Positions 54,144-56,431 of a DNA stretch of 64,000 nt are shown in pieces. A program made the position numbers and the translations under genes. The notes under the pieces are model-generated. The model saw nothing but the letters and a program-made list of their open reading frames with translations, was not told the DNA's origin and did no database searches. How positions within the stretch are numbered: position 1 is the stretch's first letter; each line of letters opens with the position of its first letter. The stretch spans positions 1,120,001-1,184,000 of the forward strand of contig OZ219866.1 in assembly GCA_964291675.2 (NCBI GenBank), given 5' to 3'. This DNA comes from Alphaproteobacteria bacterium. GTDB lineage: Bacteria > Pseudomonadota > Alphaproteobacteria > MPNO01.

Positions 54144-55411
54144 AGCGCCATCGCCTCGCGGTAGTAGCGGTACATGGCGCGGATCGCGCGCTCGGTGATG
54201 ATGGTGTCCGTCTCCTCCGCGTCGTCGCCCAACAGCGCGAGCCCGACCCGAGGCATCGAGCGCCTGAGCCCGTCCTGGACGAATTTGAGCGCCTCGTTGT
54301 CCTCGATCCCCAGGAACCCGCCGGGGCCGAAGATGTTGTTCTGGCGCAGCCGGTGCCGCGTCATCGCCTCGTCGTCCGTCGCGCGGCCGAACACCGCCCA
54401 GATCATCATCAGCTCGTTCGGCCCGCGCGGCACGATGAGCCGGGTGTTCAAGATGTTGGTCTGGCGCAGCGCCGTCATATTGGGCCAGATCGTCATCGCC
54501 GCGCCGGACCACGAGGAGTCGAACTCGCGGACGAAGTCGAGCACGCTCTCGTCGTTGAGCCTGAGCCCTTCGCGATAGGCCTGGATCTGCGCCTGGTCCT
54601 CCTCGCTCACGTCGGGGCGGCCCTGCGGGCGGCGCGAGAGCAGCGCGCTGTGGCGCCCGACGGGATCGACCAGGATGTCGGACTCGTTGCTGGTCACGAA
54701 CAGCCCGAAGGTCGTGAGGTAGGTGTGCAGCAGCGTCGCGTGGTAGGGGTCCTTGAGGTTCTCCTGGTACAGCTTCCAGTTGCCCGGCAGGATGTTGCGG
54801 TGGAGCCCGAGCAGCACCTGCTCGGTGCCGTCGAAGATGATGTCGAACTGTTCGCGGATCTCGGGGCCGAGATAGTCCTCGACCGGCTCCATGTCCTCGC
54901 AGGCGGTGGCGAAGATCACGCCGCGATAGGCCGACGCCTTGAACTTCCTGAGCCCGTGCTCGGCCATGTCGAAGCCGGGCGGCATGCCCCCCTTGCCCTT
55001 CACCCCGCGGCGGAACGGCACCGCCACCAGATCGCCCGCGAGGTCGTAGGTCCAGTTGTGGTAGGGGCAGACGAAGCGCTCGGTATTGCCGCGGTATTCG
55101 CGGCAGTACTCGGCGCCGCGATGGGCGCAGCGGTTCTCGAACACGTGGACTCCGCGGTCGGCGTCGCGGGTGACCACCACCGGCACCTCGCCGACATAGG
55201 AGCGGATGTAGTCGCCCGGCTTCGGCACCTCGCATTCGAGGCCGACGAAGTTCCAGTGCCGGCCGAAGAAGATGCGCTCCTGCTCGCGGGCATAGATCCA
55301 CGCGTCGGTATAGACCCAGTCCGGCACCTGCGTTTCGTCATTCGGCCAGGCCAGCTCGGCCGGCGCCGTGGCGCCGTTGCCGTTGGCCGGAAAACGGTTC
55401 GTTCCGTCCAT
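54140..55411 (-). CDS. Aromatic ring-hydroxylating oxygenase large subunit (salicylate 5-hydroxylase NagG-like group)
   Basis: NRCAHRG..CPYHNWTY; GNWKLYQENLKDPYHATLLH; FGPGG...ED. Confidence 0.9.
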   Translation of the reverse strand: MDGTNRFPANGNGATAPAELAWPNDETQVPDWVYTDAWIYAREQERIFFGRHWNFVGLECEVPKPGDYIRSYVGEVPVVVTRDADRGVHVFENRCAHRGAEYCREYRGNTERFVCPYHNWTYDLAGDLVAVPFRRGVKGKGGMPPGFDMAEHGLRKFKASAYRGVIFATACEDMEPVEDYLGPEIREQFDIIFDGTEQVLLGLHRNILPGNWKLYQENLKDPYHATLLHTYLTTFGLFVTSNESDILVDPVGRHSALLSRRPQGRPDVSEEDQAQIQAYREGLRLNDESVLDFVREFDSSWSGAAMTIWPNMTALRQTNILNTRLIVPRGPNELMMIWAVFGRATDDEAMTRHRLRQNNIFGPGGFLGIEDNEALKFVQDGLRRSMPRVGLALLGDDAEETDTIITERAIRAMYRYYREAMAL

Positions 55412-55537
55412 GCCCCGTCTCCTGCTTGCGGGTTGGAGTATCCGCCGGATGGGGCGCGCTCGCAAGCCGCGGGCGAAAGGGTGTCCCTGCCCGGATCGAA
55501 GCGACGGAACGCCGTGTCGGCGGGTTCGCTCCGCCGG

Positions 55538-55672
55538 TCAGTTCTTCCTGGGCGGTGGTGGCGGAGGGGGCGGAGGTTTGGCGGCGCCCGGCGGCTTGGG
55601 CGATACGCCTTTCTCCAATGGTACGGAACCCGGACCTCGTCTTGAAGGCGGGGGCGTGGGCTCCTTGGCCAT
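55538..55672 (-). CDS. 44-aa proline-rich peptide MAKEPTPPPSRRGPGSVPLEKGVSPKPPGAAKPPPPPPPPPRKN (not in ORF track)
   Basis: AAGGAG RBS 6 nt before ATG; nine consecutive Pro using all four CCN codons; GC hairpin after TGA. Confidence 0.65.
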   Translation of the reverse strand: MAKEPTPPPSRRGPGSVPLEKGVSPKPPGAAKPPPPPPPPPRKN

Positions 55673-55714
55673 GACTTGCTCCTTGTGCTGCCCGTTGGAT
55701 TCCGGTTCTTCGGT

Positions 55715-56311
55715 CTAACTATGGCGTACTTCCAGAAACTCGACCATTTCAACTTCCCCGGCGGGAATGAGAATGCTGGCGACTCCTTCGATGGGCTCCC
55801 GTCTGTCGTCATACAACCATTCACCCTCCGCGATGCGGAAATGTCCGTCGGCGGGATGGCTGGGCCACTCTTCCGGCCAGCCGAGAAGGCGCCGCTGCCC
55901 GTCCAGGTGCAAGACGACATAGGAGTCTCGGTGCCGGGAGAATGCCGAGTACCATTCGGACGGGTAAGAAGTCTCCTTGGTGATGCCGGCTCGGCGTAGA
56001 AACTTGTGCAAGGAGTCCGTGTTGGAGAAATAGGAGGCGAGCAGTCCCAGCACGACTGCGACAACGATGGAAAGTGCGGCCTCCCACGTCCCGGCCGCCG
56101 CGAGCTTCTCTTGCGCGCTAGACAGGGCCAGCAGGCAGTATTTCGTTATTGTCTGCCCGACCACAGTGAATATCAGCGCCACAACGACACGATCGAATGT
56201 GCCGGGCCTAGGATGGGATGTCAGAGAATAGAAGACGGCAGCGGCAACGAATCCCGGTAGGAGAAAGGTCAGGACGCCGACGAATTCACCGGATGCCCAG
56301 TCGATATCCAT
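55715..56311 (-). CDS. DUF6338-like membrane protein (N-terminal TMs plus C-terminal beta domain)
   Basis: LTFLLPGFVA, SEWYSAF, YVVLHL..RRL.GWPEEWPS, ILIP..EVEMVEF; lower GC than flanks. Confidence 0.8.
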   Translation of the reverse strand: MDIDWASGEFVGVLTFLLPGFVAAAVFYSLTSHPRPGTFDRVVVALIFTVVGQTITKYCLLALSSAQEKLAAAGTWEAALSIVVAVVLGLLASYFSNTDSLHKFLRRAGITKETSYPSEWYSAFSRHRDSYVVLHLDGQRRLLGWPEEWPSHPADGHFRIAEGEWLYDDRREPIEGVASILIPAGEVEMVEFLEVRHS

Positions 56312-56352
56312 CGCCCACAGCCCCACGCAGATTCACGATTTGTTCCAACCCC

Positions 56353-56380
56353 AGGATACCGACCCGTTGGATTGCGTCAA
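56353..56380 (-). promoter_or_regulatory. sigma70-type promoter for the DUF6338-like gene
   Basis: TTGACG-N16-TATCCT. Confidence 0.5.
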
Positions 56381-56431
56381 GCCCTTCCGTTTCTCGAATT
56401 TCCCGCCGGCCCTCGGCCGCGCGAGGTCCGG

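Follow-up and report, generated by a model that had tools for sequence, protein, structure and literature searches.

The closest described case to the gene pair analyzed here is an operon of Pseudomonas stutzeri ATCC 14405, in which the DUF6338 gene Pstu14405_RS12030 is accompanied by the small proteins SEP1, SEP5 and SEP2, a trio of Pro-rich proteins of 36, 47 and 41 amino acids encoded behind it on the same strand (PMC10433244). Digest-free mass spectrometry (MS) of the three peptides reached 98-100% coverage with 44-114 peptide-spectrum matches (PSMs), and the peptides were present in cell extracts at full length, minus only the initial Met (PMC10433244). The authors describe them as restricted to P. 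stutzeri, not conserved and possibly new genes, and raise an antimicrobial role (PMC10433244). In the searchable literature, DUF6338 is mentioned in this article only and its Pfam accession, PF19865, nowhere. Here, we analyze a related pair on a stretch of 64,000 nt from an alphaproteobacterium (contig OZ219866.1, positions 1,120,001 to 1,184,000; hereafter the window), where a DUF6338 gene is followed by an unannotated small open reading frame (sORF). We find that this sORF is a conserved protein-coding companion of DUF6338 genes in nine phyla, and that the cassette carrying both genes is horizontally mobile.

Both operons share the order of a DUF6338 gene followed by one or more basic, Pro-rich sORFs on the same strand. 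They differ in that P. stutzeri carries three tandem peptides with shorter Pro runs, all ending in PPPP(P)K(K/R), whereas the window encodes a single peptide with nine consecutive Pro and a MAKEP N-terminus. The window pair is a polyproline variant of the P. stutzeri operon. A core G-x-N/S-...-(V/I)(R/K)P...PPPP-KK is common to the P. stutzeri peptides and to four loci of the collection described below (L074, L075, L092 and L108). This recurrence across loci contradicts the published restriction to P. stutzeri. That homologous peptides are made in vivo is proven by the MS data.

The gene pair in the window

The DUF6338 gene (55715-56311, minus strand) encodes 198 amino acids from its ATG. Its product matches PF19865 with an E-value of 7.7e-17 and 62 bits against a cut-off of 26.5, covering profile positions 8-203 of 205, and a whole-genome profile scan agrees with the assignment; the DUF6338-like identity proposed in a preliminary description of this DNA is thereby confirmed. 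An alternative GTG start five codons upstream is possible; the homologues begin at the ATG position. After a gap of 42 nt between the DUF6338 stop and the next start follows the sORF (55538-55672, minus strand), which encodes a basic, Pro-rich protein of 44 amino acids, MAKEPTPPPSRRGPGSVPLEKGVSPKPPGAAKPPPPPPPPPRKN. An AAGGAG ribosome-binding site (55679-55684, minus strand) stands 6 nt ahead of its ATG. This site and the run of nine consecutive Pro had both been reported correctly in the preliminary description, which counted 17 Pro in the whole peptide where there are 18. The run is encoded by mixed codons (CCT CCG CCC CCT CCG CCA CCA CCG CCC). We are highly confident that the pair is a real module.

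Conservation of the gene pair

A set of 80 loci was fetched by DUF6338-protein patterns alone (the best 80 of 143 confirmed), which together with the window amounts to 81 loci; many of these stem from metagenome bins of related habitats or lineages and are hence non-independent. On the same strand, a zone of 680 nt (starts from -40 to +640 nt relative to the match end) was inspected for sORFs of at most 80 amino acids with at least 20% Pro and at least six Pro within an eight-residue window near the C-terminus. Such a Pro-rich sORF lies behind the DUF6338 gene in 79 of the 81 loci, which represent nine phyla. The two misses are L040, where the contig ends 110 nt past the gene, and L080, where the Pro run has disappeared from both of two tandem copies. 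Altogether, 87 sORFs of this kind were counted within the 680-nt zones versus six in the other 1.29 Mb of strand-bases (0.003 per zone-sized stretch). The pairing of DUF6338 and sORF is not chance, and the presence of Pro-rich sORFs beside homologues, which the preliminary description had named as a test of its proposal, is borne out.

The arrangement of the two genes is tight. The modal spacing between DUF6338 stop and sORF start is +3 nt, overlaps of 4 or 8 nt are frequent, and a Shine-Dalgarno (SD)-like motif precedes 69 of the 79 sORFs. Two to four sORFs are arranged in tandem in nine of the 81 loci. In four of 80 DUF6338 genes, a frameshift stands beside an intact sORF; we give this asymmetric decay no weight, because the 4.6-fold larger target of the DUF6338 gene can explain it by itself. 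A frameshift at about codons 37-39 of DUF6338 is common to L061 (labeled Deltaproteobacteria) and L068 (Binatia), which come from independent assemblies, again beside an intact Pro-rich sORF, and is either an inherited pseudogene or an oddity at this site.

Distant DUF6338 genes have a partner as well. In 15 of 16 such loci, a separate disordered sORF of 52-72 amino acids is located at or overlapping the stop codon, encoding peptides rich in Pro, Gly and Ser with the motifs GYQPxKS..NP..PPKGGSGVP and EGYVxKGG..PPAP..KK; the remaining locus shows this peptide start too, but joined in frame to a longer ORF. Locus L097 shows a partner frame (MAKLRKGSNPP..., from ~1912 onward) that continues into the next gene as a 413-aa ORF, either because the stop codon was lost or through faulty assembly.

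The small open reading frame as a coding sequence

The sORF is under protein-level selection. Three blocks of the peptide are conserved (MAKEPxPPPS(R/K)R, G(V/I)SPKP and KPPPPPxPPPKK), both termini are its best conserved parts, and in 74 of the 79 partner peptides the C-terminus is a P-rich run with K/R behind it. At the nucleotide level, codon positions 1 and 2 are near-invariant and position 3 varies (0.75-1.96 bits), both among the first sORFs with MAKEP (42 of 79) and among 74 aligned C-terminal runs. This variation extends to non-Pro codons, and all four Pro codons are in use across the sORFs (CCG 534, CCA 229, CCT 184, CCC 183). The preliminary description had taken the mixed CCN codons of the Pro run as a sign of selection on the protein, and a selected coding sORF is supported here. 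The five other reading frames over the sORF are each open in at most 41 of the 79 loci, the antisense ones in 16-41. In the window, a 116-aa antisense ORF (55368-55718, plus strand) has a nine-Gly run that mirrors the stretch of Pro; this ORF is no gene but an artefact of CCN/GGN symmetry.

The partner peptides are strongly basic, with a median net charge of +7 (range +1 to +13). No signal peptide, leader or lipobox, and no hydrophobic N-terminus, was found in the peptide of the window or in the first peptides of the 78 other loci that have one, and Cys is present only in the L077 and L078 peptides, away from any lipobox context. A word-index search of a collection of 5.8 billion proteins gave no counterpart of the window peptide, which fits gene callers skipping such sORFs.

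The DUF6338 protein carries a predicted Sm/LSm-like domain

By the same type of search, 1199 DUF6338 relatives were retrieved, of which the best 120 are 58-100% identical. An AlphaFold2 model of the window protein built on 84 sequences (pLDDT 79.7) predicts helices at residues 8-30, 38-66 and 73-97, which are the three predicted transmembrane (TM) helices, a short helix at 100-108, a helix at 119-126, and strands across 131-193. The three TM helices and the C-terminal beta domain of the preliminary description are both recovered. The C-terminal domain (residues ~114-197) consists of an N-terminal helix and a strongly bent, five-stranded antiparallel sheet, as is characteristic of the Sm/LSm fold. 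In a Foldseek search, this part matched archaeal Sm proteins with an E-value of 9e-5 and TM-scores of 0.78-0.82 relative to target length, and VIA-align gave a Z of 9.7 for 1loj_A (rmsd 3.1 over 76 residues) and of ~7.9 for Hfq. The domain matches archaeal and eukaryotic Sm/LSm proteins, in agreement with the SH3/Sm-like aromatic domain that had been suggested from the sequence. For the helical part, a PTS IIC protein was considered and set aside, as its Z of 6.3 is under the level that the tool treats as meaningful for helices.

Strongly conserved positions fall in both parts of the protein. In the C-terminal domain, W145, P146, E148, W149 and P150 of a WPEEWP loop are invariant or nearly so, and in the strongly conserved membrane helices the same holds for LLPGF and ALIFT. 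Over the last 100 residues, the net charge of DUF6338 proteins ranges from -15 to 0, with a median of -5. The pattern of loop charges suggests an N-out/C-in topology, which would place the Sm-like domain toward the cytoplasm. Apart from DUF6338, no Pfam family was found in either of the two proteins, including Sm, Hfq and MS_channel. Longer forms of the protein were searched for as well. A 467-aa fusion of DUF6338 with a transposase domain is probably a gene-calling artefact, and the long C-termini of some homologues are explained by read-through in the frame overlapping the sORF.

Mobility and distribution of the cassette

In the window, the pair is contained in an inserted cassette of ~0.96 kb (55471-56431, +/-20 nt, minus strand), delimited by comparison of filled and empty junctions. 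It lies between a gene for a PhyH-family dioxygenase on one side and the genes for the alpha and beta subunits of a Rieske oxygenase on the other, all on the same strand, and has a GC content of 0.59-0.61 versus 0.68-0.72 in the flanks. An orthologous PhyH gene was found in 11 genus-mates, and nine of these loci were examined along with that of the window. Besides the window, two of the nine carry the cassette and six lack it, one locus being undecidable at a contig end. At the six empty sites, PhyH is directly followed by the Rieske gene with a spacer of ~70-280 nt. The self-contained, low-GC insert of the preliminary description is supported by both the GC drop and these empty sites. A flanking duplication of the start of the next gene was considered and rejected: compared with each other, the left and right junctions in the window score lower than shuffles do on average (an equal or higher score in 476 of 500), and one of four empty sites gave a marginal junction match (7 of 500 shuffles, uncorrected).

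The same genome carries a second DUF6338 cassette (G000:C1:425673-426230; L001 1480-2245), inserted between nuoF and nuoG and co-oriented with them. This copy is a more typical DUF6338 member (129 bits) with its own sORF of 58-62 amino acids, its GC content is 0.36-0.42 versus 0.69 in the flanks, and no convincing direct repeats were found flanking it. Judged by this composition, it is a foreign cassette inside the complex I operon.

On a wider scale, PF19865 was found in 24 of 401 sampled genomes of the phylum, 17 of them above the cut-off. A lambdoid prophage of Escherichia coli strain 44 (L118) has an annotated DUF6338 copy between the methyltransferase/replication side and nin-like genes; an unannotated Pro-rich sORF of 45 amino acids (L118 6595-6732) overlaps its stop codon, within a stretch of 555 nt free of annotated features. 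A plasmid copy in the planctomycete Paludisphaera has a partner sORF of 49 amino acids, with an integrase and ParDE nearby. On this plasmid (L117 1451-4938), the genes directly ahead of DUF6338, which share its strand, encode an ATP-binding protein and an S8 peptidase, and the whole run may form a larger functional unit. Among relatives on viral contigs, three of nine have a Pro-rich sORF. In a tree of 77 sequences from nine phyla, from which four frameshifted rows were excluded, the phylum label changes 14 times (minimum 8; shuffles 35.9), indicating mostly within-lineage inheritance with some transfer across phyla. The cassette is horizontally mobile.

Gene neighborhoods

Neighbors were called by greedy ORF picking in high-GC DNA, and the counts that follow stand without a background rate of defence genes. 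Among the nearest downstream ORFs, 11 of 78 are of restriction, defence or toxin type (Type ISP/IIG in four cases, and MmeI, HsdR, SIR2-STAND, ApeA-HEPN, a DNA methylase, Zeta toxin and AAA_21) and four of 78 are of mobile-element type. An all-against-all BLAST of the ORFs within +/-4 kb revealed no universal third gene; only lineage-specific synteny (Binatia) and a cluster of Type ISP-like enzymes in 11 loci emerged. Two single loci may be mentioned here. In Pseudohongiella (L013 292-7526), the cassette lies between a ThiF/E2/JAB/patatin fusion and a SIR2-STAND NTPase, a clear defence island. In an unclassified bacterium (L025 2596-3300, minus strand), an ankyrin-repeat protein is encoded directly upstream of the cassette.

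Transcription signals and other features of the window locus

A sigma-70-like promoter match, TTGACG-N16-TATCCT (56353-56380, minus strand), lies upstream of the DUF6338 gene. This site, a match to the consensus only, had been pointed out before and is indeed the sole match in 1.3 kb, with 0.1 expected from 50 shuffles. A hairpin downstream of the sORF, listed earlier as a feature of the module, does not stand out: the folding of the 76 nt after the sORF is indistinguishable from that of shuffles (z -1.58; 16 of 200 equally stable), and no terminator-like site was called there. In metatranscriptome run X1 (labeled sponge metagenome), two contigs fall on the DUF6338 gene (55992-56165 and 56223-56391, depth ~3) and none on the sORF; this RNA library may contain DNA, so that the contigs do not demonstrate transcription, and the missing cover of the sORF carries no weight.

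The native leader of the Rieske gene (CTTGCGA...GATACT...AGGAGA...ATG; 55412-55470, minus strand) lies outside the cassette, as the alignment of filled and empty sites shows, and is kept in genus-mates both with and without the cassette. Its conservation at filled as well as empty sites suggests that the Rieske gene retains its own promoter-like element downstream of the insert. The genus also shows a large expansion of 2-oxoglutarate oxygenases, with seven matches of the PhyH-family dioxygenase (E <= 1e-40) in the genome of the window and 9-10 per genus-mate.

Comparison with known systems

The DUF6338 C-terminal domain has the helix and bent five-stranded sheet of Sm, LSm and Hfq proteins, and its best matches are heptameric archaeal Sm proteins. 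It differs from them by the three-TM anchor, by an identity of only 9-21% and by the lack of any Sm or Hfq Pfam match. The mechanosensitive channel MscS is a heptamer in which three TM helices are followed by a cytoplasmic Sm-like beta domain. The DUF6338 protein resembles it in having three TM helices and an Sm-like beta domain, but is much smaller and has no C-terminal alpha/beta domain; the Pfam family MS_channel did not match, and no MscS chain was among the structural matches listed.

With type II toxin-antitoxin (TA) and abortive-infection systems, the pair shares the layout of a compact mobile cassette of two adjacent, co-oriented and probably co-transcribed genes, one for a small disordered partner and one for a membrane protein. 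The sporadic occurrence, with relatives in a prophage, on a plasmid and beside restriction genes, is a further likeness. In contrast to type II TA systems, the small partner has no DNA-binding domain, neither protein is homologous to a known toxin or antitoxin family, and the pair fits no model of a catalogued defence protein.

In the Rz/Rz1 spanins of phage lambda, too, the gene of a membrane protein is overlapped or adjoined by one that encodes a small protein rich in Pro. There, the lipoprotein Rz1 has both a signal peptide and a lipobox Cys, and Rz has a periplasmic coiled coil. The DUF6338 protein has three helices and an Sm-like domain in place of such a coiled coil, and the analogy fails because the partner peptides are devoid of a lipobox.

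Proposed mechanism

In this study, we propose that the DUF6338 protein is an inner-membrane protein with three TM helices and a cytoplasmic, acidic, Trp-rich domain of the Sm/LSm fold, which probably assembles into a ring by analogy with Sm proteins. The sORF is translationally coupled to the DUF6338 gene, and its strongly basic, disordered and presumably soluble product is the cognate partner. Most plausibly, this peptide would bind at or within the Sm-like domain as an extended polyproline-II rod, with the flanking Lys/Arg residues holding it in place, and in this state a membrane-active effector would be kept silent. In that case, the pair would act as a selfish toxin-antidote or phage-exclusion module carried in host operons, prophages and plasmids. 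As a complete explanation, from the mobile pair to its role as such a module, this is our preferred reading, which we put forward tentatively and with rather less than even confidence.

Direct binding of the peptide to the Sm-like domain is, on its own, a prediction that we consider evenly balanced. Co-folding of the C-terminal domain (residues 98-198) with the peptide yielded an ipSAE of 0.02, which speaks neither for nor against binding, and the charge complementarity between basic peptide and acidic domain counts in favor of the proposed module. A more specific version, which we regard as a rather remote conjecture and which would make the pair a hitherto overlooked class of two-component membrane module throughout the family, would have the Sm ring form a channel or effector that is held shut by the peptide as a polycationic polyproline-II plug. 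A short-lived peptide would be lost upon phage takeover or collapse of translation, whereupon the ring would open and depolarize the cell; in the polyproline subfamily, the peptide supply would in addition be tied to EF-P capacity.

Several findings weigh against a toxin-antidote or phage-exclusion role. Neither protein matched any family of PADLOC-DB 2.0.0 at E <= 1 (0 families), and PHROGs (best E 0.12) and NCBIfam gave no match for the pair, so that nothing ties the pair by homology to known toxins, antitoxins or defence proteins. A search of 50,697 isolated phage records gave no match to the window protein or to a viral-contig relative, and the searchable literature contains no toxicity, binding or phage data for members of the DUF6338 family. 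The nearest upstream ORF is clearly of defence type in only one of 79 cases, and the remaining neighbors are mostly metabolic or housekeeping genes. Tandem peptide arrays, as seen in nine of 81 loci and, with three copies, in P. stutzeri, are rarely met among antitoxins and would be more usual for peptides that are exported. Finally, DUF6338 proteins are 45-80% identical across phyla, and the strong purifying selection that this indicates would fit a useful cellular function equally well as a toxin.

Competing explanations

The likeliest alternative is that the pair is a benign accessory membrane complex with a role in the envelope or in membrane homeostasis, which spreads because it is useful or neutral. 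Such a complex would be at home among the mostly metabolic and housekeeping flanking genes and in cassettes that are co-oriented inside operons without disrupting them. Likewise, it would explain the strong conservation of the membrane helices (LLPGF, ALIFT) and the abundance of the P. stutzeri peptides in ordinary growth. Yet the family occurs only sporadically (24 of 401 genomes), members of one genus differ in whether they carry the cassette, its GC content is low, it occurs in a prophage and on a plasmid, and an appreciable share of its neighbors are restriction or defence genes. Together, these traits are typical of conflict-related accessory genes, and we consider a benign complex unlikely, though a serious competitor of the toxin-antidote or phage-exclusion module.

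An exported peptide system, in which the Pro-rich peptides are antimicrobials or signals and DUF6338 is their exporter or immunity protein, appears improbable to us. The tandem paralogous genes (nine of 81 loci, up to four copies, and three in the P. stutzeri operon) and the strongly cationic, Pro-rich composition are what one would look for in such peptides, the antimicrobial role raised in the P. stutzeri article points the same way, and a pore could conceivably be built from a three-TM protein whose domain forms rings. However, the peptides have no signal peptide, leader or lipobox and, apart from those of L077 and L078, no Cys, and they are most conserved at both termini, unlike leader-core precursors. 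Furthermore, no conserved transporter, protease or modifying enzyme adjoins the pair, and the P. stutzeri peptides were reported from cell extracts at full length minus Met only.

The preliminary description suggested a sensor, in which EF-P-dependent translation of the polyproline run registers translational stress and releases a membrane effector. Efficient translation of three or more Pro in a row depends on EF-P; nine stand together in the window peptide, and the P-rich run before K/R recurs at the end of 74 of the 79 partner peptides. The distant partner peptides, however, are Gly/Ser-rich and have only PP or PPP, and the P. stutzeri peptides reach high spectral counts with PPPP or PPPPP. 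Since the distant partners are without long Pro runs, the family-wide pairing cannot rest on polyproline stalling. The sensing principle is accordingly weakened to the point where we deem it very unlikely, and EF-P dependence is at best an add-on in the polyproline subfamily.

That the sORF is no gene at all, and instead an ORF open by chance, the reflection of a Gly-rich frame on the antisense strand or a regulatory RNA element rich in C, can practically be dismissed: the CCN run is open as GGN on the opposite strand, with the 116-aa ORF and its Gly run, and the peptide is absent from the 5.8-billion-protein collection, but position, start codon and SD motif are kept in 69-79 of 79 loci, third-position variation extends to non-Pro codons, no more than 16-41 of 79 loci have the antisense frames open, and homologous peptides were sequenced by MS in P. 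stutzeri.

Implications

DUF6338 is a widespread family of no known function, which now becomes a defined and testable two-component system, as nearly every member examined has an unannotated gene for a small disordered partner. The E. coli prophage and P. stutzeri offer tractable versions of it. The published statement of species-specific new genes in P. stutzeri is corrected by the same data. If the plug model were true, the module would represent a new type of toxin-antidote or abortive-infection system across at least nine phyla, prophages and plasmids, overlooked so far because gene callers miss the peptide. More generally, conserved small proteins, and especially those of low complexity, are systematically missed by annotation.

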